Of a DNA stretch of 64,000 bases, positions 41,952-63,998 are shown one piece after another. Source of the stretch: a virus; the IMG/VR virus record IMGVR_UViG_3300043570_002836, positions 1 through 64,000 of that record, one strand, 5' to 3'. A program made the position numbers and the translations under genes. Under the pieces are notes generated by a model, which was not told the DNA's origin, searched no databases, and saw nothing but the letters and a program-made list of their open reading frames with translations. Within the stretch, counting starts at the first letter, position 1. Every line of letters begins with the position of its first letter.

Positions 41952-43988
41952 ATGATTGAATCTGTAGAAAATAGTGGTAAAGGTAAAAAAGGTGATTCAT
42001 CAACTCCTGTTTTAGATAACTTTAGTCGTGATTTAATTAAATTGGCTGAGGAGGGTAAATTAGACCCTGTAATCGGTCGTGATAGGGAGATTAATAGAAT
42101 CGCCCAAATTTTATCAAGACGTAAGAAAAATAACCCAATTATTATTGGTGAACCAGGTTGTGGTAAAACTGCGATAGTTGAGGGATTGGCGATTAAAATT
42201 TACAACAACGAATGTCCAAGAAATTTAATGGATAAAAAAATCGTATCGTTAGATATGACTTCAATTGTTGCAGGTACAAAGTATCGTGGTCAGTTCGAGG
42301 AAAGGATGAAAGTAATTATTGAAGAATTACAAACAAACCCAAACATTATTGTATTCATTGATGAGATACATACAATTGTTGGTGCTGGTAATTCATCAGG
42401 TTCAATGGATGCGTCTAATATCTTTAAACCCGCATTAGCAAGGGGTGAGATTCAATGTGTCGGAGCAACAACATTAGATGAATACCGTAAAAACTTTGAG
42501 AAAGACGGAGCGTTAGAAAGACGTTTCCAAAAAGTTATTGTTGACCCAGCGACCAAAGAAGAAACTTTTGAAATTCTTAAAAACGCTAAAGACAAATATG
42601 AAAATTACCACAAAGTAGTTTATAGTGATGAGGTATTAACATTGTGTGTTGATTTGGCGGAAAGATATATTACGGATAGAGAATTTCCTGATAAGGCGTT
42701 TGACATCTTAGATGAGGTTGGGGCTCGTAGTCAAGTTGAAGTTAAAATTCCTGATGAAATTGAGAAACTTAAATTAGAAGCTCTTGATATTAAACAAGAA
42801 AAATTGGATGTTGTAAAACGTCAAGATTACGAAGAGGCCGCTAATCTAAGAGATAAAGAAAAACGTATTCTAAACAAATTAGAAACTGAGAAAAAGAAAT
42901 TTGAGGAAGAACTAAATCAACAACGTAAAGAAATTAGTACTGAACTTGTTTATGACGTAGTTTCAAACATGACCAAAATTCCAATTTCTAAATTAAACGC
43001 TGATGAGACAAAATCATTAAGTGAAATGGAAGGTAATTTAAATGATAAAGTTATTGGTCAACCTGAAGCGGTTTCCAAAATTGCTAAATCAATTAGACGA
43101 AATCGTTTAGGGATTAAGGACCCGAACAAACCAATTGGCTCATTTATTTTCCTTGGTTCAACAGGTGTTGGTAAAACTCACTTAGCAAAACAATTAGCCA
43201 AACAAATTTTTGGTACTGAAGATGCGTTAATCAGAATTGATATGTCGGAATATCAAGAGAAACATAATATCTCAAGATTAATCGGTTCACCTCCAGGATA
43301 TGTTGGTCACGAAGAAGGGGGACAATTAACCGAACAAGTTAAAAACAAACCTTACTCAGTGATTTTATTTGATGAGGTTGAGAAAGCGAACAAAGATATT
43401 TTCTCAACATTACTTCAAGTACTAGATGATGGTCACTTGACAGATAGTTTAGGTAGAAAGATTAATTTCAAAAACTGTGTAATCATTATGACTTCAAATA
43501 TTGGGGTTAGAAAATTACAAGATTTTGGAACAGGTATCGGATTTGGAACATCGGCAAAAACTTATGTTGAAGAAGAACAAAAACGTGATATGTTGAAAAA
43601 AGAACTTCAGAAGTTTTTCGCTCCTGAATTCTTAAACCGTATTGATGAGATTGTTGTATTCAAAAGTTTAAATCGTGAGGATGTTAAGAAAATAGTTCTA
43701 TTGGAAGTTGAAAGATTACAAAAACGTTTAACAGGATTAAAATACAACTTCACATTTGACGAATCCGTTATTGATTTAATTTCTGAGGTTGGTTACGATG
43801 AAATATACGGTGCAAGACCTTTGAAAAGAGCTATCCAAGATAAGATTGAGGATTATATCTCAGAAGAAGTGTTGAAGGGTACTTTAGTGGAGAATGTTTT
43901 ATACCGATTAATTGTGATTGATAAAGAAGTTAAAATTGAAGAAGATAAACCTGTAAAAAAAGGTAGAAAGAAAAAGGGGGTTGAATAA
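41952..43988 (+). CDS. clpC: ClpC-like AAA+ unfoldase lacking the N-terminal Clp repeat domain
   Basis: Two AAA modules (GEPGCGKT, GSTGVGKT), UVR-like middle domain, GIGF ClpP-docking loop. Confidence 0.88.
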   Translation: MIESVENSGKGKKGDSSTPVLDNFSRDLIKLAEEGKLDPVIGRDREINRIAQILSRRKKNNPIIIGEPGCGKTAIVEGLAIKIYNNECPRNLMDKKIVSLDMTSIVAGTKYRGQFEERMKVIIEELQTNPNIIVFIDEIHTIVGAGNSSGSMDASNIFKPALARGEIQCVGATTLDEYRKNFEKDGALERRFQKVIVDPATKEETFEILKNAKDKYENYHKVVYSDEVLTLCVDLAERYITDREFPDKAFDILDEVGARSQVEVKIPDEIEKLKLEALDIKQEKLDVVKRQDYEEAANLRDKEKRILNKLETEKKKFEEELNQQRKEISTELVYDVVSNMTKIPISKLNADETKSLSEMEGNLNDKVIGQPEAVSKIAKSIRRNRLGIKDPNKPIGSFIFLGSTGVGKTHLAKQLAKQIFGTEDALIRIDMSEYQEKHNISRLIGSPPGYVGHEEGGQLTEQVKNKPYSVILFDEVEKANKDIFSTLLQVLDDGHLTDSLGRKINFKNCVIIMTSNIGVRKLQDFGTGIGFGTSAKTYVEEEQKRDMLKKELQKFFAPEFLNRIDEIVVFKSLNREDVKKIVLLEVERLQKRLTGLKYNFTFDESVIDLISEVGYDEIYGARPLKRAIQDKIEDYISEEVLKGTLVENVLYRLIVIDKEVKIEEDKPVKKGRKKKGVE

Positions 43989-54849: not shown

Positions 54850-55986
54850 TTACGCATAATCGCTTTGATTTAATTCAATATTAATTTTTGGTTTGTTATT
54901 CAACCCATCATCAGGGTGTTCAAGATAACCTAATTGTCGAATAGATAAATAATACCCAACATTATTGTCATTTTTAATTTTCCATATCTTTTCAGGGTAA
55001 GATAGACCTTCTAATTCTTTGGGTGTGGTTTTAATATCGTCAATTTTTTTAAAATCATAAATATCCGTAACATAAAATTTATCACCAACTTTTTTATAAG
55101 AAAAACGGCCTAAAGTGGTTGCGACCATAAATTTAGGGTTAGCAAATAAAGTATTCAAAATCATATCACTCGATTTAGTACCTCCAGGTCCAAACCATTC
55201 TTTTTCGATACCACCACCATAATCAACATACTCAACACTACCATAAGTTGTTTTACCTGTTCGTTTAATAGCATTATTAATAGTACTCATAATTATGGTT
55301 TTTTGAGGTCCTGTAAAATCATCAGTGGATAAATCACGAGCAAAAAATAATTCAGCAACATTAGGGAATAACTTTCTAAAATATGATTTAAGACCTTTTT
55401 TGATAGGACTAAATGCGGGAAATAAAGGGCTTGATAAAACGGCTAAAATATTCGCCCAAGAAGACCAAGAGGGTCCAGAATTTTTTGATTTTAATTCGTT
55501 AATATAGTCAGTTTTAAATTTGGCGTAAGACGATTTTGTAATGTTATCCATAACACCCGTTTTATTAGTTGGGATTATGGAATTATTATACCAACCTTTA
55601 TGGGTTTTATTCATCCATAATTGAAATCCTTTTAAAAAGTCAACATTTTTTTTCGACTTATTATTAGTCGTATCTTTTGTTTTTAATTTATCAATATAGT
55701 CTTTAATTTTGCCGTGTAATATTGTAATTGCTTTAGGATTATTAGTTAAATCAACCCATTTTACCCCATTTTTATTTTTTGCAAACCAAACACCTTTTAA
55801 TAATTTATAATCATAGGTTTTGTCAAAATTAGTATAAACACCATCATTAATATTTTTAAGATATTTATCATAAAAACTTTGATTATCGTTTTTAAAATAA
55901 TTTGAAGATGGTGATAGTTGTTCAGATAAAATATTTTTGACTAATGTTAATAATTGATTCTCGTTTAGACGTATTATTTTTTTCAT
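54850..55986 (-). CDS. Hypothetical protein with MKKIIRLNE leader
   Basis: Shared N-terminal motif; late motif at 56001-56008. Confidence 0.65.
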   Translation of the reverse strand: MKKIIRLNENQLLTLVKNILSEQLSPSSNYFKNDNQSFYDKYLKNINDGVYTNFDKTYDYKLLKGVWFAKNKNGVKWVDLTNNPKAITILHGKIKDYIDKLKTKDTTNNKSKKNVDFLKGFQLWMNKTHKGWYNNSIIPTNKTGVMDNITKSSYAKFKTDYINELKSKNSGPSWSSWANILAVLSSPLFPAFSPIKKGLKSYFRKLFPNVAELFFARDLSTDDFTGPQKTIIMSTINNAIKRTGKTTYGSVEYVDYGGGIEKEWFGPGGTKSSDMILNTLFANPKFMVATTLGRFSYKKVGDKFYVTDIYDFKKIDDIKTTPKELEGLSYPEKIWKIKNDNNVGYYLSIRQLGYLEHPDDGLNNKPKINIELNQSDYA

Positions 55987-56048
55987 AAAAATTTCTTTAT
56001 TATAAATACATTTTAAATGAAAAAAAAGCGTAAGGAATAGAATAAAGT

Positions 56049-56154
56049 TATTAATACAGGTTTCGAACCTGTGAGTCCCCGTGTATAGGTATCATACATA
56101 CCACATTCCCAGACTTTATGTATGCTCAACCATAAGCCACTCGGTCAATTAATG
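56049..56154 (-). ncRNA. tRNA-like RNA with expanded, non-canonical anticodon arm
   Basis: ATTAAT/ATTAAT acceptor, class-II-like D arm, ACAGG-TTCGAAA-CCTGT T arm; CATACATA/TATGTATG stem with 16-nt loop. Confidence 0.6.
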
Positions 56155-56159
56155 AACCT

Positions 56160-56366
56160 CCCCTGAGATTACGGAGAGTAGATATTCTCAGTTTTTCTTA
56201 TACAAAACCCAACGCGTCTTACCGCTTAAAAATCAACCATTACGTCGGAGTGAGGATGGTGTTCCACACTATTAACCCAACGACCCCCTTTACAAATCCT
56301 AATGAGGTATCAGATATATCATTGTTTAAGTAACGATACCAAATCTACTGAGTTTCTCGAACTCAT
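56160..56366 (-). ncRNA. Candidate structured ncRNA (~205 nt) at the end of tRNA array B
   Basis: AGTAGAT/ATCTACT long-range pairing crossing CTGAGA/TCTCAG; no ORF. Confidence 0.45.
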
Positions 56367-56368
56367 TG

Positions 56369-56443
56369 TGGAGACAGTGGGAATCAAACCCACCCCACGG
56401 TGAATGCAAATCACCATCGCCAAGTCTTGGAACATTTGCCCCC
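56369..56443 (-). tRNA. tRNA-Ala(TGC)
   Basis: GGTGA-TTTGCAT-TCACC; G3:U70. Confidence 0.85.
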
Positions 56444-56453
56444 ATTTTATTTG

Positions 56454-56526
56454 AGCGGGTGGAGGTAATCGAAACCTCGTCCTTAGATTGGAAGTCTAAT
56501 ATAATAAGCCACTATACGACACCCGC
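56454..56526 (-). tRNA. tRNA-Gly(TCC)
   Basis: TTAGA-CTTCCAA-TCTAA. Confidence 0.92.
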
Positions 56527-56612
56527 AAATTTGGGTAGAATCAGACGCGTTCTGTCTACCGAGACCTCATCGTTAATGAATTACTTCATCAGAGCGTACT
56601 GAGACACTATTG

Positions 56613-56692
56613 TGAACCTGGAGGGAGTCGAACCCTCAACCATATGGACTTCGGCTTAAACGAAGCGTGTTTACCAATTTCACCACAGGTCC
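56613..56692 (-). tRNA. tRNA-Leu(TAA)
   Basis: CTTCG-TTTAAGC-CGAAG; long variable arm. Confidence 0.9.
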
Positions 56693-56698
56693 ATTTTG

Positions 56699-56771
56699 TA
56701 GTCCTATCAGGATTCGAACCTGAATCAAAGAGGTAGAAGCTCTTTATGTTAATCCCTTACACCATAGAACC
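56699..56771 (-). tRNA. tRNA-Arg(TCT)
   Basis: AAGAG-CTTCTAC-CTCTT. Confidence 0.9.
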
Positions 56772-56780
56772 AAATTGTTG

Positions 56781-56852
56781 AGGGCTGGGGGAATTTCGAA
56801 ATCCCGACCTTTCGATTAACAGTCGAAGGCTCTTCCTCTGAGCTACCAACCC
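56781..56852 (-). tRNA. tRNA-Asn(GTT)
   Basis: TTCGA-CTGTTAA-TCGAA. Confidence 0.9.
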
Positions 56853-56866
56853 TTATATTTGTTTTG

Positions 56867-56939
56867 AGGTCTCTAACGGATTCGAACCGTTATCCCTGGG
56901 TTACAAAGCCAGAATAATAAGCCATTATACTAAGAGACC
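56867..56939 (-). tRNA. tRNA-Thr(TGT)
   Basis: CTGGC-TTTGTAA-CCCAG (C31:C39 mismatch). Confidence 0.85.
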
Positions 56940-57158
56940 AATTTGTGATTACTCCTTGGGTGTTTCATCACATTTACGTGAATGGAGTGGCCAAACTCAC
57001 TAACAACACGGACATTAGTTTTTAACAAAATAACTATCGTCAAAAATCGTCAGTTTTTATCAACCAAAACTGAATAAACGGACTGTCGTATTTGTTAACA
57101 CTATTTAAGTGCGTGTTACCTACGTTCACAATCAGAACCCTACTTGTTTACACTCCCG

Positions 57159-57230
57159 CGGTCTATGAGAGAATCGAACTCTCAGCACATCCGTGACAGG
57201 GATGTATGTTAACCATTACACTAATAGACC
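57159..57230 (-). tRNA. tRNA-Asp(GTC)
   Basis: CATCC-CTGTCAC-GGATG. Confidence 0.92.
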
Positions 57231-57235
57231 TTTAG

Positions 57236-57306
57236 TAGCGGATTCAGGACTCGAACCTGGCCTCGGGGTTATGAGCCCCACGTGCTACCATTTACACTAA
57301 ACCGCG
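57236..57306 (-). tRNA. Initiator tRNA-fMet(CAT)
   Basis: GGG/CCC anticodon stem; C1:U72 mismatch. Confidence 0.88.
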
Positions 57307-57311
57307 ATGTG

Positions 57312-57383
57312 TATTCCCACGGAGAATCGAACTCCGATTTTATGGATGAAAACCATAGGTCCTAACCGTTAGACGATGGGAAC
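57312..57383 (-). tRNA. tRNA-Glu(TTC)
   Basis: TATGG-TTTTCAT-CCATA. Confidence 0.92.
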
Positions 57384-57450
57384 GTTTAATTGTCTTACAA
57401 ATCTAAGTATTTACTTTTGATTATACAAGACCTTTTTAATTTTTTTTCTG

Positions 57451-57524
57451 TGGTCCAGATAGGATTCGAACCTATGACCTTCGCTTTATGAGAGCGCCGC
57501 TCTAACCACCTGAGCTACAGAACC
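57451..57524 (-). tRNA. tRNA(CAT), probably Ile2 (lysidine, reads ATA)
   Basis: CGCT-CTCATAA-AGCG; Ile-like D arm; leader B contains ATA and no internal ATG. Confidence 0.8.
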
Positions 57525-57529
57525 TTATG

Positions 57530-57602
57530 TACCCCCAACAGGATTCGAACCTGTAAAAAATAGTTCCTAAAACTATCGTGTCTACCTTTCCACCATAGGG
57601 GC
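57530..57602 (-). tRNA. tRNA-Leu(TAG), unusually short variable region
   Basis: ATAGT-TTTAGGA-ACTAT. Confidence 0.85.
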
Positions 57603-57652
57603 GTTTACTTCTATTCCAATACGTCAATGAACTCTTGTTCTGTTTTGTCTGA

Positions 57653-57686
57653 CAAATCTAATACTTTTATTTTGATTTGCCAAACT
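57653..57686 (-). promoter_or_regulatory. Bacteroidota-type promoter (TTTG...TAGATTTG) between terminator B and tRNA array B
   Basis: Matches the -33/-7 consensus; boxA-like GTTCATTGAC at 57623-57632. Confidence 0.7.
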
Positions 57687-57694
57687 TAGGTCAT

Positions 57695-57726
57695 AAAAAA
57701 AACCCCTCTCTTTTGGAGAAGGGTTT
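57695..57726 (-). terminator. Attenuator-type terminator B
   Basis: AAACCCTTCTC-CAAAA-GAGAGGGGTTT followed by T-tract; 5' arm complementary to GGAGTAGG spanning the leader stop codon. Confidence 0.85.
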
Positions 57727-57758
57727 CATTTAAATTTTATCTTAATGAATTAACACAC

Positions 57759-57827
57759 CTACTCCGATACACAAGGATTGTCCCCCTCCGTTCTCGCATT
57801 TAAAAGTATGTTATTCAAATTTTGCAT
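57759..57827 (-). CDS. Leader peptide B, MQNLNNILLNARTEGDNPCVSE (putative attenuator of tRNA array B)
   Basis: Codons 3-17 are all cognate to array B tRNAs and cover all 10 elongators. Confidence 0.8.
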   Translation of the reverse strand: MQNLNNILLNARTEGDNPCVSE

Positions 57828-57892
57828 TACTATGTCGTTTTTTATTAAATATATTGTACTTCTTGAAAAGTTCAATAGTTTATGAAAAAAAA

Positions 57893-58450
57893 TTATTTTT
57901 TTATGAATACGTATATAGTATTTGTACCATAATTAGTTGATGAGGTAAACCCATCTTTAAAATATTCTTTATTTGTCCAAGATTCTTTGAATGATTTTCT
58001 AGAGATAACTAAACAATCTGTAGGTATCATATTATAAATTTCGGCATCAATATTATTGGGGAATAACGTATTATCCATGTAGATTACTGTGGCATCAGAA
58101 ATATCACAATTTAAAATATTGTCATTAATAAATGAAATATTATCATTTTTGATATTATGAGTTTCCATTAACTTTAATGATGTTTCGTATCGTTCACGAC
58201 TATACTCAATACCACAAGATTTTTTGGGGTTATATTCCACCCCAATATGGATTACTATTTTCCCAATACCTGAACCTAAGTCATAAAATACCGTATCATC
58301 ATTAAAATGTGTTTTGTATTTGTTAACTATTTCGTTAATTGAATCGTAACCTGTTTCTCCATAACCTTCTGACCCGACAATATTAACATCAAATTCTGTT
58401 TTATTGTGGATGTTATATGAATTAAAATTATATAATGTTTCTATCGACAT
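57893..58450 (-). CDS. SAM-dependent methyltransferase (DOT1-like); start moved to ATG 58450 outside the tRNA
   Basis: YGE, FYDLGSGIGK, GIEYS..R, DATVIY. Confidence 0.8.
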   Translation of the reverse strand: MSIETLYNFNSYNIHNKTEFDVNIVGSEGYGETGYDSINEIVNKYKTHFNDDTVFYDLGSGIGKIVIHIGVEYNPKKSCGIEYSRERYETSLKLMETHNIKNDNISFINDNILNCDISDATVIYMDNTLFPNNIDAEIYNMIPTDCLVISRKSFKESWTNKEYFKDGFTSSTNYGTNTIYVFIKK

Positions 58451-58464
58451 ATTGGTAAATTTTG

Positions 58465-58545
58465 TGGGAGTGGAGGGATTCGAACCCCCACGCAATAAAG
58501 ACCTGATTTACAGTCAGGCGAGCCAGCCAGTTGCTCAACACTCCC
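58465..58545 (-). tRNA. tRNA-Tyr(GTA), copy 2
   Basis: CCTGA-CTGTAAA-TCAGG. Confidence 0.9.
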
Positions 58546-58584
58546 AAGTTAGGAAAGAGGAAGATGGTTTGTACGTCTTTTATT

Positions 58585-59079
58585 TTAGACCTCCAAATTT
58601 TTATTAAATAAGACATCACCTTCTTTCATATATTCTTTTTTCACTTTTTCAATCAAGGATTTCAAAGCGGAGTTACCTTGTGTTGTTTTTTTAAGGTCTT
58701 CAAGTTTAGGACTACCTTTAAAACTAATCTTAGTATAAGACGTTCCGTTTTCTTTACCCCATACAATGTTAGTTAAACACAACTTGTCAATTTTCTTTTG
58801 CTCCTTTTCTTTTTCTTTCTCGAATAGAATATCATCAATAACTGAATCAAGTGTTCGTGAATAACCAAACTCTTTTGGTAAAGTTTTACAGAAGTTATAA
58901 ACCTCATCTAAAACTTTAGACATACCTTCATTTAAAGGTTGGATATTTGTATTACCACCGTGTCCGTCATTTTGAGCGTATGCCGTTTTTTTACCGTTTA
59001 TAAAAACATCAGCCATGAAACAAGTAGTTTCTTCGCTAAACATTTTGTTAATCTTTACATTTTTAAGTTCTATTTTCAT
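58585..59079 (-). CDS. Hypothetical protein between the two tRNA-Tyr copies
   Basis: SEETTCF.A...INGK....A.NDGHGG; own -7 element at 59100-59107. Confidence 0.75.
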   Translation of the reverse strand: MKIELKNVKINKMFSEETTCFMADVFINGKKTAYAQNDGHGGNTNIQPLNEGMSKVLDEVYNFCKTLPKEFGYSRTLDSVIDDILFEKEKEKEQKKIDKLCLTNIVWGKENGTSYTKISFKGSPKLEDLKKTTQGNSALKSLIEKVKKEYMKEGDVLFNKNLEV

Positions 59080-59155
59080 ATTGTTTTTTTTTTGTCTTAC
59101 AAATCTACAATTTTAATTTAGTTCTCACAATAGTTTTTTTATTTTTTTTTTTAAG

Positions 59156-59236
59156 TGGGAGTGGAGGGATTCGAACCCCCACGCAATAAAGACCTGATTT
59201 ACAGTCAGGCGAGCCAGCCAATTGCTCAACACTCCC
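59156..59236 (-). tRNA. tRNA-Tyr(GTA), copy 1
   Basis: Identical to copy 2 except one D-loop base. Confidence 0.9.
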
Positions 59237-59308
59237 AAAACATATCGTAGATTGTCCTTCACAATTTAACGGCGGGTTTGAACTTAATCAACTCTCCTAC
59301 GATATTTG

Positions 59309-59380
59309 CACACCACCAAGGACTCGAACCCTGACCAAATGGGTTGGAACCATTTATGCTAGCCATTACACCAATGATGC
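59309..59380 (-). tRNA. tRNA-Trp(CCA)
   Basis: AATGG-TTCCAAC-CCATT. Confidence 0.9.
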
Positions 59381-59404
59381 GAATAATGAAACTTTGTTTC
59401 ATTG

Positions 59405-59478
59405 AGGACAGAGAGAGGTTCGAACTCTCGAATAATGGATTTGCAGTCCACCCCCTTAGACCACTCAGGCATCTGTCC
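59405..59478 (-). tRNA. tRNA-Cys(GCA)
   Basis: GTGGA-CTGCAAA-TCCAT; U73. Confidence 0.92.
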
Positions 59479-59872
59479 TTGAATTTACCATTTTAACTAA
59501 GACATCAACTAATATTACATTGTCGATACCCTCAATTAAGATTGGATTTTTTGTTTTCCCGTTTTCGATTAAATTACCTACTCCCATGTAAAACTTACAA
59601 TCAGTACTAATATTTGTTTTGTACATAATTGCGTTATACGCTTTTTGTTTTAATCTATCACTTCTAAATGTTGTTGTCAAATCTATGAAGATATCAACCC
59701 CGTCAATTGTTGTTTTAAAATCAAAATCAATAATTTGTTTTTTACCTAATGAGTTAATGAAAAATGGTTTTTCTTTATTTAACATTTTTTTTAACCCCGT
59801 TAATAATTCAAACTTGTCTTCTAATGACTTTCCATTCAGACATTTTTCTTGGTTAGTTTTACTGTGTGTCAT
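59465..59872 (-). CDS. Putative PD-(D/E)xK-type endonuclease within the tRNA array
   Basis: GKSLE..F...IDFDF......IFIDLTT..RSDRLK; stop codon lies inside tRNA-Cys. Confidence 0.5.
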   Translation of the reverse strand: MTHSKTNQEKCLNGKSLEDKFELLTGLKKMLNKEKPFFINSLGKKQIIDFDFKTTIDGVDIFIDLTTTFRSDRLKQKAYNAIMYKTNISTDCKFYMGVGNLIENGKTKNPILIEGIDNVILVDVLVKMVNSRTDA

Positions 59873-59993
59873 AGTCGTAATGTTTTTAAATATTAAGTCG
59901 CGGGGAATCCATCTGCCGCTTATTACTAGAATCTTGTGGTTTACTTACTATAGTTCATACCGTTACCACTAGGAAACCCAACTTAATATTTTG

Positions 59994-60065
59994 TAGCCCC
60001 TGTAGGACTCGAACCTACACTATTTTGTATGTAAAACAAACACTTTTCCTTTAAGTTAAGGAGCT
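59994..60065 (-). tRNA. tRNA-Val(TAC)
   Basis: TTTGT-TTTACAT-ACAAA. Confidence 0.88.
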
Positions 60066-60073
60066 AATTATTG

Positions 60074-60148
60074 TGTCCCCGACAGGAATCGAACCTGTGA
60101 CCCTTCCATTAAAAGTGGAATGCTCTAAACCAACTGAGCTACGAGGAC
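60074..60148 (-). tRNA. tRNA-Lys(TTT)
   Basis: TTCCA-CTTTTAA-TGGAA. Confidence 0.93.
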
Positions 60149-60159
60149 ATTTTTTTAAG

Positions 60160-60233
60160 TCGGAATGGTAGGGTTCGAACCTACGACCTTTCACGTATCA
60201 GGCGAATGCTCTAACCAACTGAGCTACATTCCG
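60160..60233 (-). tRNA. tRNA-Ile(GAT)
   Basis: TTCGC-CTGATAC-GTGAA. Confidence 0.92.
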
Positions 60234-60240
60234 TTATTTT

Positions 60241-60315
60241 TGGTCGGGGTAGCAGGTGTCGAACCTGCCGCCTCTTGGTCCCAAACCAAGCGTCTCTCCC
60301 CAAGACTATACCCCG
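60241..60315 (-). tRNA. tRNA-Pro(TGG), CCA encoded
   Basis: CTTGG-TTTGGGA-CCAAG. Confidence 0.9.
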
Positions 60316-60711
60316 TTATTTTGTTTTTAAGATATCCCCCAACTTCTTTACACGATTTTTGAAAGTTGTGTTGTAGAACTTTTCAAAATCTTGTTTAAGG
60401 TAGTTGAATCTGATATCACACCCATTTTTTAATTCTTTGTATGTGGAACCCCAATTCATCCCATCATTTACCATATCAATAACCAAGATTCCTACAGATA
60501 AGTTAGTAACATTCCCAACCCATATTGATATCTTCAATTCAGGGTTATATAAACCTCTACCATAAGATTCACCTCTTGGGTCAATAACAAAACCTCTTTT
60601 TTTGAACTCATCTAAAATGAAAGTTACCATTTCAGGTTTTAAACCTGATTGAATAGATTTAATCTCGTTATTTAATCCTTGAACTTTAGTTATTTTGTCT
60701 GTAGTTGTCAT
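60316..60711 (-). CDS. Hypothetical protein within tRNA array A
   Basis: Own -7 element at 60740-60747; stop codon abuts tRNA-Pro. Confidence 0.7.
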   Translation of the reverse strand: MTTTDKITKVQGLNNEIKSIQSGLKPEMVTFILDEFKKRGFVIDPRGESYGRGLYNPELKISIWVGNVTNLSVGILVIDMVNDGMNWGSTYKELKNGCDIRFNYLKQDFEKFYNTTFKNRVKKLGDILKTK

Positions 60712-60791
60712 ATGTATGGGTTTATCGTTGTTTGTCTTACAAATCTACGAAATCATTTCCATTCTCACAACACTTTTGTTATTTTTTTTTG

Positions 60792-60861
60792 TACCGAGTA
60801 TGGGTTTCGAACCCACTTGACCATCCTTATGAGAGATAGTTCTTTTCCTTTAAGCCTCGGT
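60792..60861 (-). tRNA. tRNA(CAT), probably elongator Met; short, atypical D arm
   Basis: TATCT-CTCATAA-GGATG; leader A has two internal ATG codons. Confidence 0.7.
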
Positions 60862-60868
60862 GTTTCTG

Positions 60869-60956
60869 CGGAAGATGTAGGGTTCGAACCTACGCATCAT
60901 ATTTCAGACCTACTTGTTTAGCAAACAAGCCTCTTTACCGATTTGAGTAATCTTCC
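60869..60956 (-). tRNA. tRNA-Ser(GCT)
   Basis: CTTGT-TTGCTAA-ACAAG; long variable arm. Confidence 0.92.
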
Positions 60957-60996
60957 AAATTATACCGACCTAGCTCGGTATCACACATCGGATACG

Positions 60997-61068
60997 TAGT
61001 CCCCCAAGGACTCGAACCTTGACAATAACATCCGTAGTGTTAAGTGCTATCCATTACACCAAGGAACC
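60997..61068 (-). tRNA. tRNA-Arg(ACG)
   Basis: TAACA-CTACGGA-TGTTA. Confidence 0.9.
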
Positions 61069-61124
61069 AAATTATTAGGTCAGGACCTAATAATCACTCA
61101 TTATTAGGTTTTAACCTTATATTG

Positions 61125-61199
61125 GGAGTATAGTGAGATTTGAACTCACCCTATTATCACCACAAAATAACGTGCTCAACCACTGACACTATATACTCC
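61125..61199 (-). tRNA. tRNA-His(GTG)
   Basis: TTATT-TTGTGGT-GATAA; G-1:C73. Confidence 0.88.
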
Positions 61200-61277
61200 A
61201 TAAAAACCCCACTTCATCAGCTTAACGGACTGACTGCCATATCGGAGGTGGGGGTATCCTGTTAATTCAGGACCTCG

Positions 61278-61350
61278 TGGGACAGGAGAGAATCGAACTC
61301 TCATTGCTTGTTCTTCAAACAAGTGCCTTGACCAACTTGGCAACTGACCC
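61278..61350 (-). tRNA. tRNA-Phe(GAA)
   Basis: CTTGT-TTGAAGA-ACAAG. Confidence 0.88.
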
Positions 61351-61359
61351 AATTTATTG

Positions 61360-61432
61360 TTGTCCCACAAGGGTTCGAACCTCGACTCTTCTGTACCAAA
61401 AACAGACGTGTTGCCAATTACACTATAGGACA
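61360..61432 (-). tRNA. tRNA-Gln(TTG)
   Basis: TCTGT-TTTTGGT-ACAGA; U1:A72. Confidence 0.9.
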
Positions 61433-61438
61433 GTGAGA

Positions 61439-61564
61439 TTACTTTTGTAATCTTTTTAATAATTTTTTAATTAACTTAAATTTGATTTTAATCCCTTTAG
61501 GTTCTTGTCTCAAAAACACTCGACTTGATTCGAATGTTCCTGTTAATACTTCTTTTCTTTTCAT
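61439..61564 (-). CDS. Small basic protein, 41 aa (MKRKEVLTGTF...KRLQK), not in ORF track
   Basis: Translated by hand; A-rich 5' region; fills the gap between tRNA-Ser and tRNA-Gln. Confidence 0.5.
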   Translation of the reverse strand: MKRKEVLTGTFESSRVFLRQEPKGIKIKFKLIKKLLKRLQK

Positions 61565-61583
61565 AATTTATTTTTCTTTTTTG

Positions 61584-61666
61584 CGGAAGACAGAGGAATC
61601 GAACCCCTAAAGCTTTTACACCCAGCTGATTTCAAGTCAGTGTCCTCGTCCATTCGGGCGCCTTCC
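61584..61666 (-). tRNA. tRNA-Ser(TGA)
   Basis: CTGA-CTTGAAA-TCAG; long variable arm; G73. Confidence 0.92.
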
Positions 61667-61687
61667 GTATTTTTATCTTTACCAATA

Positions 61688-61717
61688 TGTCAAAGAACTT
61701 TTCATTTTACAAAGTTA
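61688..61717 (-). promoter_or_regulatory. Host-type -7 element (TAACTTTG) and boxA-like GTTCTTTGACA ahead of tRNA array A
   Basis: Motif match. Confidence 0.65.
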
Positions 61718-61753
61718 CATTTTTTATTTTGTAACTTCCTAATTTTTATTCCA

Positions 61754-61796
61754 TAAAAAAACCCCCGAACTTTTGGTTCAGGGGTCTTACTAAATT
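61754..61796 (-). terminator. Attenuator-type terminator A
   Basis: GACCCCTGAAC-CAAAA-GTTCGGGGGTT followed by T-tract; CTGAACCA complementary to TGGTTCAG in leader A. Confidence 0.85.
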
Positions 61797-61811
61797 AATA
61801 TACGTTTATAT

Positions 61812-61931
61812 TTAACTTAATATGTTTTCTGAACCATATGACATGCTAAACCACATCGGATACGATACGCAACAAACGCGAATCTGTTTCGATGGACTTA
61901 CTTGTTTAATATGTTGTTCAGTTGCTCTCAT
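61812..61931 (-). CDS. Leader peptide A, MRATEQHIKQVSPSKQIRVCCVSYPMWFSMSYGSENILS (putative attenuator of tRNA array A)
   Basis: Codons 6-32 are all cognate to array A tRNAs and cover all 14 anticodon types. Confidence 0.85.
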   Translation of the reverse strand: MRATEQHIKQVSPSKQIRVCCVSYPMWFSMSYGSENILS

Positions 61932-61957
61932 TTTTTTTATTCTTTAATATATATCTA

Positions 61958-61987
61958 CAAATTTAGTAAAAGTTTGTTGAATGTCAA
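61958..61987 (-). promoter_or_regulatory. Promoter for leader A (TTGAC...TAAATTTG)
   Basis: Bacteroidota -7 consensus about 27 nt upstream of the leader ATG. Confidence 0.65.
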
Positions 61988-62001
61988 TGTTTTTTTAAAT
62001 T

Positions 62002-62184
62002 TTAACTGTTTTTCCACTCTTTCCAATAGTCAAATTCTTTTAAATTTTCTAAAAATTGTTTCTCAACCATTACATAGTTACTTGAGTTTTCCATTTCAGA
62101 TAACATATTGAAAAATTGTTGTCCATCTAATGACTCGGCAAACTGTCTATGTTCTTCTTCTAATATTTCGTGAAATCTTCCCAT
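62002..62184 (-). CDS. Small hypothetical protein
   Basis: ORF track. Confidence 0.6.
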   Translation of the reverse strand: MGRFHEILEEEHRQFAESLDGQQFFNMLSEMENSSNYVMVEKQFLENLKEFDYWKEWKNS

Positions 62185-62185
62185 C

Positions 62186-62365
62186 TTATATTTTCTTTAC
62201 GTGGTATTCGTGACCTGAATCAGAATTTGTTTGAAAGATGTCTTTCATTGTTTCAGCTTCATTTTCGGTTTCAAATTCCCAAACCTCAATATCAGTGTTT
62301 AATAAAATAACAGGTAAACTTTTTCCTGTTTTTTTGTTTTTTACGTTTTTGATAATTACATACAT
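62186..62365 (-). CDS. Small hypothetical protein, 59 aa (MYVIIKNVK...HVKKI), not in ORF track
   Basis: Translated by hand; -7 element at 62385-62392. Confidence 0.65.
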   Translation of the reverse strand: MYVIIKNVKNKKTGKSLPVILLNTDIEVWEFETENEAETMKDIFQTNSDSGHEYHVKKI

Positions 62366-62417
62366 AGTCTCGATATTTTTTTTACAAATCTAATAACAAT
62401 TTAGATATTAAACAACT

Positions 62418-63998
62418 TTAAAATCTGTTTTTTTTCTTACCACCAAACATTCTTAAATTTTGTTCGGCTAACGTACCCTTCTTTAATTCAAAGATTTCAT
62501 TTCGGTTAAGGGGTTTATTAACTTGTTTTGGTTTTTCATCCTTAGATGGATGATAAATATCTTTTCGGTTTTGGATGTTATTGATTAAATCGTAATTTAT
62601 TTTGGCGTTTTCTTGTTTTGGTTTAACATTTAATTTGAGAACATTGGTTAATAAATTTTCAATTTTATCCTTAACTATGTTGAATTCGGATAAATTTGAC
62701 GAGTTAATTACTTCAATTGTTATTTCTTTAAATTTTTCGGTAATTAACTCGGATAATGGTCCAAAATCTTTTTTTGTTTTACTAATTTTTGAATAATTAC
62801 TTCTAATTTTTGACGACATATTAGTGTCAGGATGTTGTGTTAAACTATTTGGATGAATACGTCGATAAAACCCAATTTTTTTAGTGTGGGTTAATTTTAC
62901 TTTATTTTTATATAATCGACCCATTAAATCGGAATCAGCCGCACATCTCCACCCCTCAAATCCATTCATATTTAAAAATAAGTTTTTATTAATACCGAAT
63001 ACACCTTCACCGTATGTGTTAGTTGTGGTGATGGTTTTATTAATTCCTTTAACGTCACCTTTAAAATCTAAATACATAGGTTTAATTAAGTCATGCGTAC
63101 TTTTTTTGGCCATGATATCTTGTATTAATTGTTCTGTCATAATATCGTCAGAATCAAAAAATAAAATATAATTAGATTTACTAATTTTAGTTAAACTATT
63201 TTTAATAATATATGGACCAACATTTTTTTCAAAGTATTGAAAACTTATTCGACTATCAAAACTATTATTTTTCACATATTCTAATGTTTTTTTACAACCA
63301 TCAATTCCGATGAAGATTTCACATTCAAGGTTTTTGATAGACTTAATTATGGATTGTAACGTTTCATCAAGGAATTCAACATTGTCGAATGTTGGTAATA
63401 TAATTGTTATTTCTTTCTCTTCATTTTTAATATCGAATTCATTAACTATTTTATCAATAAACAACAAATCTTTATATACCAATATGTTTTCGTTATTTTT
63501 ATCATTTCCGATAACTATAACTTTATCACCATGTGACCATTTTTGTAAATTTTCCAAAATTACAACTGAAAAATCTTTTTTAGTTTTATCAACATTAAAT
63601 AAAATTTTACTACCTATTTTCTCTTTAAAGTTATTTTCTAAATACGTTAAATGGTGCATGTTCATTCGTGAAATTAAGTACTTATTCTCAACCATTTTTC
63701 TTGCAGGGTCAGAAAGAACCGAACTATAAATATGTCTACCGTATTTTCTATCATCTATCTTATATATTGATGGTACATAAAGTTTATCTTCTAAAAAATA
63801 GTATTTATCACTTTTATAATATGTAATTATTGGTGAATATAATGTATCAATATTATTAAGTTTCATTAAATTCACCTCCTCTCTTAGTTGACGGTCATTA
63901 TAACATTCATCATTATCTAAAGTCATAATATATTCACAATTCACCGATTTACATTTTTCTAAACCCAAATTTCTTTTATCAATCATACCATCAATTTT
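62418..63998 (-). CDS. Glycosyltransferase family 2 (two GT-A-like domains), probably 5'-truncated by window edge
   Basis: TLDNDE; ITIILPTF...IDG...FFDSDD...AADSD; frame open to window end. Confidence 0.8.
   Translation of the reverse strand, partial: KIDGMIDKRNLGLEKCKSVNCEYIMTLDNDECYNDRQLREEVNLMKLNNIDTLYSPIITYYKSDKYYFLEDKLYVPSIYKIDDRKYGRHIYSSVLSDPARKMVENKYLISRMNMHHLTYLENNFKEKIGSKILFNVDKTKKDFSVVILENLQKWSHGDKVIVIGNDKNNENILVYKDLLFIDKIVNEFDIKNEEKEITIILPTFDNVEFLDETLQSIIKSIKNLECEIFIGIDGCKKTLEYVKNNSFDSRISFQYFEKNVGPYIIKNSLTKISKSNYILFFDSDDIMTEQLIQDIMAKKSTHDLIKPMYLDFKGDVKGINKTITTTNTYGEGVFGINKNLFLNMNGFEGWRCAADSDLMGRLYKNKVKLTHTKKIGFYRRIHPNSLTQHPDTNMSSKIRSNYSKISKTKKDFGPLSELITEKFKEITIEVINSSNLSEFNIVKDKIENLLTNVLKLNVKPKQENAKINYDLINNIQNRKDIYHPSKDEKPKQVNKPLNRNEIFELKKGTLAEQNLRMFGGKKKNRF

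Follow-up and report, generated by a model that had tools for sequence, protein, structure and literature searches.

Leader-peptide attenuators of enterobacteria respond either to a single amino acid, as in trpL, hisL, pheL, and leuL, or to a few at once, as in the multivalent attenuators of ilvGMEDA (Leu/Val/Ile) and thr (Thr/Ile). To our knowledge, leader-peptide attenuation is described for amino acid biosynthesis and related genes, with one to three amino acids sensed at once. This study deals with two tRNA arrays of a phage, arrays A and B, each of which is preceded by a short leader open reading frame (ORF) and an intrinsic terminator. Both lie in positions 1 to 64,000 of the IMG/VR virus record IMGVR_UViG_3300043570_002836, and this whole stretch of 64,000 nucleotides (nt) is called the window below. 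Genes for a major head protein, a portal protein, and the large terminase are present in the phage genome (96.5 kb, 31% G+C), and the DNA runs that contain most of the stretch are labelled as lake-water metagenome. Judging from the anatomy of the two loci and from a comparison with other phages, we consider it likely that each array is gated by a ribosome-mediated leader-peptide attenuator, the regulatory codons of which would form a checklist of the tRNAs in that array.

The two leaders have in common with the attenuators of amino acid operons a short ORF rich in candidate regulatory codons, a stop codon shortly before an intrinsic terminator, and alternative 2:3 and 3:4 pairings, with a putative 1:2 pairing in addition. 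Region 2 belongs to the 3' part of the leader in both cases, and the position of the ribosome would be read out through these pairings. They differ from them in that tRNA genes, not biosynthetic enzymes, would be controlled, in the phage setting, and in the boxA-like sequence that follows the terminator. Besides, instead of repeated codons for one to three amino acids, they contain one or two codons for each of 10–14 (up to ca. 20) decoding species, partitioned by array. T-box riboswitches likewise tie read-through to a specific tRNA state by a choice between terminator and antiterminator. However, a T-box binds one uncharged tRNA via a specifier codon without translation and controls aminoacyl-tRNA synthetase or amino acid genes, whereas the phage leaders consist of an ORF with many codons. 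An Rfam E-value scan of positions 55500-62500 gave no T-box match, and an ORF is present instead.

In rRNA (rrn) operons, boxA acts in antitermination together with NusB-S10, NusA, NusG, and SuhB, and leader-trailer helices are used in the processing of pre-rRNA. The phage locus resembles these operons in a 17-mer that is identical to a Bacteroidota pre-23S spacer sequence and in the long-range helix that encloses array A. Unlike in rrn operons, the boxA-like sequence frames a phage tRNA array and lies downstream of a leader-peptide attenuator, and both Nus-factor binding and processing are putative here. The role of phage tRNAs is debated between compensation of codon usage and replacement of cleaved host tRNAs. 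In Anabaena sp. PCC 7120, the long tRNA array of the trn operon is induced under translational stress, under the control of direct repeats in its promoter and the repressor TrcR (PMC8421152, PMC10272220). The phage arrays would resemble it as accessory tRNA arrays turned on when translation is impaired. The trn operon was rejected as a precedent since it is regulated at its promoter, and the terms 'leader', 'attenuat-', and 'terminator' are absent from PMC8421152 and PMC10272220. Full-text literature searches found no published description of leader-peptide control of tRNA genes.

Codon runs of the two leaders

The predicted peptide of leader A is composed of MRATE, a run of 27 codons, and GSENILS, and that of leader B of MQ, a run of 15 codons, and PCVSE. 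As the earlier note on this DNA had claimed, each run is an unbroken series of codons read by the array that follows it, and it samples all elongator species of that array (14/14 for A and 10/10 for B). The match also extends to isoacceptors in the window, again as claimed: run A includes CGC, ATT, AGT/AGC, and TCG/TCA, while run B includes AGA, ATA, TTG/TTA, and CTT. Among all six frames of the 96.5-kb genome, run A was the longest run of A-only codons, the next non-repetitive one having 21 codons and nine species. Run B was the longest non-repetitive run of B-only codons in the whole genome, with a runner-up of 12 codons. Both runs are located directly upstream of their own array.

The number of such runs expected by chance was calculated from the codon usage of this genome (set A, 0.499; set B, 0.501), with a position beside the array not required. 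The expected genome-wide counts of runs with full cover were 5e-6 for 27 codons and 0.07 for 15 codons. The observation of the codon runs holds up, and chance alone falls far short of explaining it. These values bear on a rival explanation in which each site is an ordinary operon boundary: a spurious or unimportant small ORF would stand by chance before the terminator of the upstream unit, the arrays would be transcribed solely from their own promoters, and the match would be a product of chance and selective reading. Expected counts this low, together with the correct placement of both runs, argue against it.

The definition of the two codon sets depends on the tRNA calls. ARAGORN (default settings) and Rfam agreed on 23 minus-strand tRNAs from 56453 to 61432, in keeping with most of the list and order in the earlier note, while Ser-TGA, Met, and Ala, also listed there, fell below default thresholds. 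Ser-TGA (61666-61583) required a relaxed ARAGORN threshold and had a weak Rfam match. Ala-TGC (56444-56369), below default calling thresholds, has G3:U70 and is ca. 93% identical, by a hand count over two sequences, to an ARAGORN-called tRNA-Ala at the equivalent place in the relative L102. The Met candidate (ca. 60862-60795) has a poor D arm and was uncalled, and a good Met-CAT occupies its position in the relatives L092 and L102. As for the two CAT tRNAs of array B, the one at 57524-57450 occupies the slot of Ile-TAT in relatives, and the one at 57306-57235 is initiator-like: its anticodon stem contains three G-C pairs, and positions 1 and 72 are mismatched. The assignment of ATG to array A and ATA to array B is clean in the relatives and plausible in the window.

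Leader and array content in other phages

The 17-mer GTTCWTTGACRTATTGG, which the earlier note did not mention, precedes each of the two arrays by ca. 13-15 nt, and these are its only two copies in the genome. IMG/VR was searched with this 17-mer, and more than 50 phage contigs (loci L107-L220) were obtained in which it precedes the first tRNA of arrays very different in order and content. In total, 54 motif sites (the 17-mer loci and the relatives of the window) gave 30 leader families at 50% identity. They represent ca. 30 divergent Bacteroidota phage contigs and share a layout in which a Bacteroidota-type promoter is followed by the leader ORF (22-51 codons) with its stop codon, a strong intrinsic terminator, the 17-mer, and the array, and the distance from the stop codon to the terminator stem was always 19-38 nt in 29 loci. 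The correspondence can be read directly in several leaders. The leader of an array for Lys, Trp, Ser, His, and Phe has SSKHSSSFKFWS, and that of an array for Pro, Gln, Tyr, Glu, Lys, Trp, Gly, and Thr has KTTYTYQPETKQPKGGT. Ahead of a 13-species array, a leader stretch of 19 residues (NKHMNVVIWKQQFSNCSYP) names all 13 amino acids; one of its Ser codons (AGY) is unreadable by the tRNA-Ser(TGA) of the array, so that the in-set run, counted in codons, does not exceed 12. Where a phage has one near-complete array only, its leader is 47-48 residues long and contains all 20 amino acids.

The tracking of array content by leaders was evaluated in other phage contigs, with 26 non-redundant pairs of leader and array, by permuting the arrays. 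The fraction of in-set codons was 0.652, as compared to 0.504 +/- 0.018 after permutation (z 8.0, p < 1e-5). The coverage of array species (0.92 vs 0.78; z 6.2) and the longest in-set run (8.7 vs 5.4 codons; z 6.1) were also higher than in the permuted pairs. When the 21 partial arrays were evaluated, the z values were 7.7 for the in-set fraction, 5.8 for coverage, and 8.7 for the longest run. The signal was specific to the reading frame, the in-set fraction being 0.60 in the ORF frame as compared to 0.42 (p 5e-5) and 0.41 (p 2e-4) in the remaining two, and to the leaders, since long ORFs of the same loci gave 0.43 against 0.60 (p 1.4e-4). The recurrence of the match in ca. 26 independent leader families (z ca. 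8), specific to both frame and leader, is a further argument against an ordinary operon boundary.

Close relatives of the phage were reached via TerL comparison, which gave more than 596 terminase relatives in IMG/VR, and DNA-pattern searches of IMG/VR. Leader A is present in eight contigs and almost invariant, and leader B is likewise retained. Codons 6-29 of leader A show few changes, and these are either silent or exchange one set A codon for another (P to Q, C to S(AGC), and S to I). In all relatives, the first 24 codons of run A keep to array A codons, and the last three drift to set B codons. Leader B has an in-frame deletion of 3 nt in one lineage (L082 and L093), and its stop codon is three codons later in the relatives. 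The frame-specific codon signal and this in-frame indel are indirect support for the predicted translation of the leaders. The earlier note had proposed to check related phages for retention of the leader ORFs and for codon content that follows array content, and both were found. Most exact matches to a 16-mer of leader A were rejected, being unrelated ORFs with YPMWF in common. In L091 (genome G001), an unrelated sequence takes the place of tRNA-Val between tRNA-Lys and tRNA-Cys, which represents a recent leader/array mismatch.

The conservation pattern also bears on the possibility that the ORFs encode functional micropeptides, for example ones acting on tRNAs or ribosomes, the composition and hairpins being by-products with no switch in cis. 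An N-terminal pattern, M-K/T-x-x-Q/N-N/H-I, is common to unrelated leaders, and trans-acting leader peptides such as peTrpL are known from other systems. Past the N-terminus, however, there is no conservation between families, and yet the composition follows the array. Changes in close relatives are mostly non-synonymous but remain within the codon set of the array, and the leader peptides had no Pfam match. Neither the terminator-arm complement in the 3' end of the ORF nor the fixed distance from stop codon to terminator is explained by a peptide function, and we regard this explanation as very improbable. The N-terminal pattern itself, in nucleotides centred around AACATA, occurs in the otherwise unrelated leaders of L109-L217 and in the window, where its two copies (61931-61905 and 57827-57800) overlap region 1. 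It could reflect shared descent, the context of translation start, or a pairing strand.

Alternative RNA pairing and the proposed switch

The features of the two loci are summarised in Table 1. Both terminators have the CAAAA loop and the T-tract followed by ATG that the earlier note described; the loop and tract stand, whereas the ATG is not conserved in relatives and therefore carries no meaning. In leader A, TGGTTCAG (61836-61829) pairs with CTGAACCA of the 5' arm and loop of terminator A (-12.8 kcal/mol). A putative pairing of region 1 with region 2 amounted to -10.4 kcal/mol in leader A and -14.5 kcal/mol in leader B, and was also seen in several folds. With this candidate pairing, leader A would have the 1:2, 2:3, and 3:4 layout of a trp-type attenuator. 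For leader B, the relatives form a perfect GGAGAAGG:CCTTCTCC helix (-16.2 kcal/mol), and in the window an alternative strand, GGAGGGGG (57789-57782), gives -14.1 kcal/mol. When ten leaders were folded minus the 3' arm of the terminator, the 5' arm paired with the 3' segment of the leader in most of them, including leader A, and the 2:3 helix was not clear in leader B and one other.

Table 1 Features of the two tRNA array loci in the window
Feature	Position	Strand	Description
Promoter P1A of leader A	61958..61987	-	TTG, spacer, TAAATTTG; Bacteroidota type; regex TTG-N17-21-TAnnTTTG
Leader A ORF	61812..61931	-	39 codons; recurs in eight contigs
Region 1, attenuator A	61909..61921	-	Putative pairing with region 2; minimum free energy fold and duplex calculation
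Sensing run A (putative)	61836..61916	-	Leader codons 6-32; array-A-only codons
Region 2 (antiterminator strand), attenuator A	61829..61840	-	Minimum free energy fold and duplex calculation
Intrinsic terminator A	61755..61788	-	13-bp stem, CAAAA loop, T7 tract, -19.2 kcal/mol
boxA-like 17-mer (61698-61682) and leader strand of leader-trailer helix, array A	61677..61698	-	
Array A	58464..61666	-	Ser-TGA, Gln, Phe, His, Arg-ACG, Ser-GCT, (Met?), Pro, Ile-GAT, Lys, Val, Cys, Trp, Tyr, Tyr
Trailer strand, array A	58438..58460	-	4 nt after last tRNA-Tyr; overlaps ATG of DOT1-like methyltransferase
Promoter-like P1B of leader B	57846..57875	-	TTG, N19, TATATTTA; near match to consensus; read from sequence
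Leader B ORF	57759..57827	-	22 codons, ATG at 57827; 24-25 codons in relatives (TAG there is AAG)
Sensing run B (putative)	57777..57821	-	Array-B-only codons
Region 2, attenuator B	57754..57766	-	GGAG(T/A)AGG; pairs with CCTTCTCC
Intrinsic terminator B	57695..57727	-	12-bp stem, CAAAA loop, T8 tract, -16.8 kcal/mol
Second promoter P2B	57653..57684	-	TTTG, N20, TAGATTTG; full consensus; between terminator B and boxA-like 17-mer
boxA-like 17-mer, array B	57616..57632	-	
Array B	56369..57602	-	Leu-TAG, CAT (Ile2 by position), Glu, initiator-like CAT, Asp, Thr, Asn, Arg-TCT, Leu-TAA, Gly, Ala-TGC (sub-threshold)

In order to compare loci, the last 15 codons of each leader were tested for duplex formation with the 5' arm of its own terminator in 29 non-redundant loci, with terminators permuted as the control. 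The duplex of own pairs was -13.8 kcal/mol, as compared to -8.4 +/- 0.5 kcal/mol for permuted pairs (z -11.6). Since the own-terminator duplex is far stronger than the permuted ones, the leader strand and the terminator arm covary. The complementarity between the 3' end of the leader and the 5' arm of the terminator, which had been noticed in both window leaders, is therefore present there and across these loci, and the covariation that had been suggested as a check in related phages was found. In-set codons made up a fraction of 0.65 in the part of the leader that precedes region 2, as compared to 0.46 from region 2 onwards (Fisher p 7e-6). Matching codons cluster at positions from which a ribosome, if stalled, would not cover region 2. 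Taken together, the tracking of array content (z 8.0), the pairing with the own terminator (z -11.6), and the frame- and leader-specific signal support the attenuator interpretation.

The mode of action is proposed to be as described below. Transcription would begin at the Bacteroidota-type promoter just upstream of the leader, and a ribosome would translate the leader as RNA polymerase nears the terminator. If all aminoacyl-tRNAs of the checklist are plentiful, the ribosome would reach the last codons or the stop codon and cover region 2, the terminator would form, and the array would be off. If any one of them is scarce, the ribosome would stall in the run, and region 2 would be free to pair with the 5' arm of the terminator, resulting in read-through. 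The polymerase would then transcribe the rrn-type boxA and run through the long untranslated array, with a termination resistance that boxA and host Nus factors may confer, and array A would be closed by the leader-trailer helix, as in pre-rRNA. The outcome would be a feedback loop for each array, that is, an OR gate over 14 decoding species for array A and 10 for array B, to which a second promoter past each terminator may add basal transcription of the array in this phage. Such a switch would read the supply of charged tRNAs regardless of the cause of their shortage.

The genes under the control of this attenuator logic thus appear to be tRNA genes, and the inputs, as many as 14 here and ca. 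20 elsewhere, are partitioned by array. If this is true, it would explain how phages dose their tRNA arrays, provide a natural multi-input sensor of decoding capacity, and make the debated role of phage tRNAs directly testable by reporter fusions. It would also tie attenuation to a second borrowed system, namely the boxA and leader-trailer framing that host rrn operons use for long untranslated transcripts. Besides, the leaders offer a prediction, from sequence alone, of the tRNAs that share one transcription unit.

As for the physiological meaning, the leaders may act as tRNA homeostats, one for each array, in several phage lineages. A pangram-like leader would poll the decoding species and open the replacement tRNAs upon depletion, caused for example by anticodon nucleases or host shut-off, so that the switch would serve as a sensor in a contest over tRNAs and would have borrowed the antitermination and processing signals of host rRNA. 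We put this forward tentatively and hold it to be possible rather than probable, and host anticodon nucleases as the trigger are speculation. Alternatively, the switch may be real and respond to another trigger, as a gauge of translation capacity or starvation or as an infection timer that is on early and off later, with no link to nucleases needed. This alternative differs from the attenuator mechanism proposed above solely in the physiological trigger. Leader-peptide attenuators such as the textbook trp, his, and ilv systems respond to charged tRNA whatever the cause, the sequence holds no pointer to nucleases, and the second promoters point to a basal level of expression that is modulated. 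The exact partition of codons by array, on the other hand, argues that specific decoding species are read, not global translation, and on balance we think a trigger of this general kind unlikely.

Several observations weigh against the attenuator interpretation. Full cover of the arrays needs the sub-threshold Ser-TGA, Met, and Ala and one CAT tRNA read as Ile2. With the 23 confident tRNAs only, the lead of run A over B-codon-free runs was small (27 vs 24 and 23 codons), and run B dropped out of the group of longest runs without array A codons; with this conservative set, run B rests on its cover and position. Isoacceptor-level tracking across loci (Leu, Ser, and Arg) was suggestive and not significant (46 vs 23 codons), and shared ancestry among leader families is only partly removed by the permutation tests. 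Among relatives, G001 (L091) lacks tRNA-Val, yet its leader A retains three Val codons, and G003-G005 (ca. 79% TerL identity) have 5-tRNA arrays without such leaders. With regard to the RNA, the region 2 used by the relatives of leader B is mismatched at one base in the window, because the TAG stop codon sits inside the strand, and a stall at the last few codons of a run would mask region 2. Furthermore, promoter-like sequences are present between both terminators and their arrays in the window.

Some of these points favour an ordinary operon boundary, in particular the promoter-like sequences downstream of both terminators, the three sub-threshold tRNAs needed for full cover, and the run lengths that conservative sets make less exceptional. 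That every leader has a complement of its own terminator and that a second promoter would not fit into 11 of the 29 loci are not expected at such a boundary, and with the chance counts and the recurrence given above we find this explanation scarcely credible.

boxA-like motif, promoters, and neighbouring features

The exact 17-mer had at least 120 matches in a collection of bacterial genomes; among the matches listed, nearly all were from Bacteroidota, many of them on rRNA contigs of 5-6 kb. In four loci, from Polaribacter, Muriicola, Flavobacterium, and Flagellimonas, it was located in the 16S-23S spacer between the spacer tRNAs and 23S. Since it is shared with the rRNA spacers of Bacteroidota, the 17-mer points to a host of this phylum. 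Based on its spacer position and on a likeness to the boxA sequences of E. coli and Bacillus, it is probably the rrn-type boxA of the host phylum. A role as part of a promoter was rejected because no -10/-7 element was found at a workable distance and the 17-mer also occurs inside rRNA spacers. In L173 (ca. 1800-2050), four tandem units, in each of which a promoter-like TTTTTATTATATTA precedes a boxA that is either perfect or degenerate, are arranged ahead of a large tRNA array.

The leader strand that includes the 17-mer (61698-61677) forms a helix with the trailer strand (58460-58438) and brackets array A across 3.2 kb (-23.5 kcal/mol, z -5.7). L091 and L093 have the same helix with both strands different in sequence, i.e., with compensatory changes, and this covarying helix of leader and trailer thus appears to close array A. 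Array B gave no comparable helix (z 0.6), and none was found in L092 and L102 just after the last Tyr.

The earlier note had placed a host-type promoter just downstream of each terminator. This was upheld for array B, where P2B has the full Bacteroidota consensus, and in part for array A, where P2A has only a -7 box (61717-61710) downstream of terminator A. Promoter P1A of leader A is conserved in L081 and L082, and a -7 box is found 13-65 nt upstream of the ATG in 20 of 29 related leaders. Because of the promoter-like sequences past the terminators, attenuation is not the sole input in this phage. This agrees with the earlier view of attenuation as a modulator beside a second promoter, a view that holds for the window and does not extend to 11 of the 29 related loci: there the terminator is <=20 nt from boxA, which leaves no room for a second promoter, and read-through is thus the sole route to the array. 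Logan contigs from lake metatranscriptomes cover both leaders and bridge both terminators (e.g. 61660-61810 and 57654-57788). These contigs were assembled from RNA libraries, with DNA carry-over possible, and show neither ends nor levels; they are compatible with the attenuation model, no more than that.

More distant relatives have an element of ca. 130 nt, conserved and structured-looking, ahead of small tRNA arrays in place of a leader ORF. It starts with ATAGGTTGATTGGGGAA and is located at ca. 16220-16090 (-) in L083 and ca. 12050-12190 in L085. Upstream of some of the G003-G005 arrays lies a structured RNA other than a leader of the type described here.

Three ORFs are found within array A (60711-60316, 59872-59465, and 59079-58585, all on the minus strand), none with a clear family, and the last of them is flanked on both sides by the tRNA-Tyr copies. 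Behind array A lies a gene for a DOT1-like methyltransferase (57893-58450 (-); Pfam PF08123, E 2e-16). A search for relatives seeded with the DOT1-like protein found none. The presence of protein ORFs in or behind array A differs among relatives. Elsewhere in the window, a phage ATP-dependent protease is encoded at 41952-43988 (+) (phrog_4871 'ATP-dependent protease', E 4e-241). Finally, some related arrays contain suppressor-like tRNAs, which would read stop codons, with the anticodons CTA (L112 and L198), TTA (L174), and TCA (L134, L147, and L179), which hints at stop-codon reassignment in those phages.

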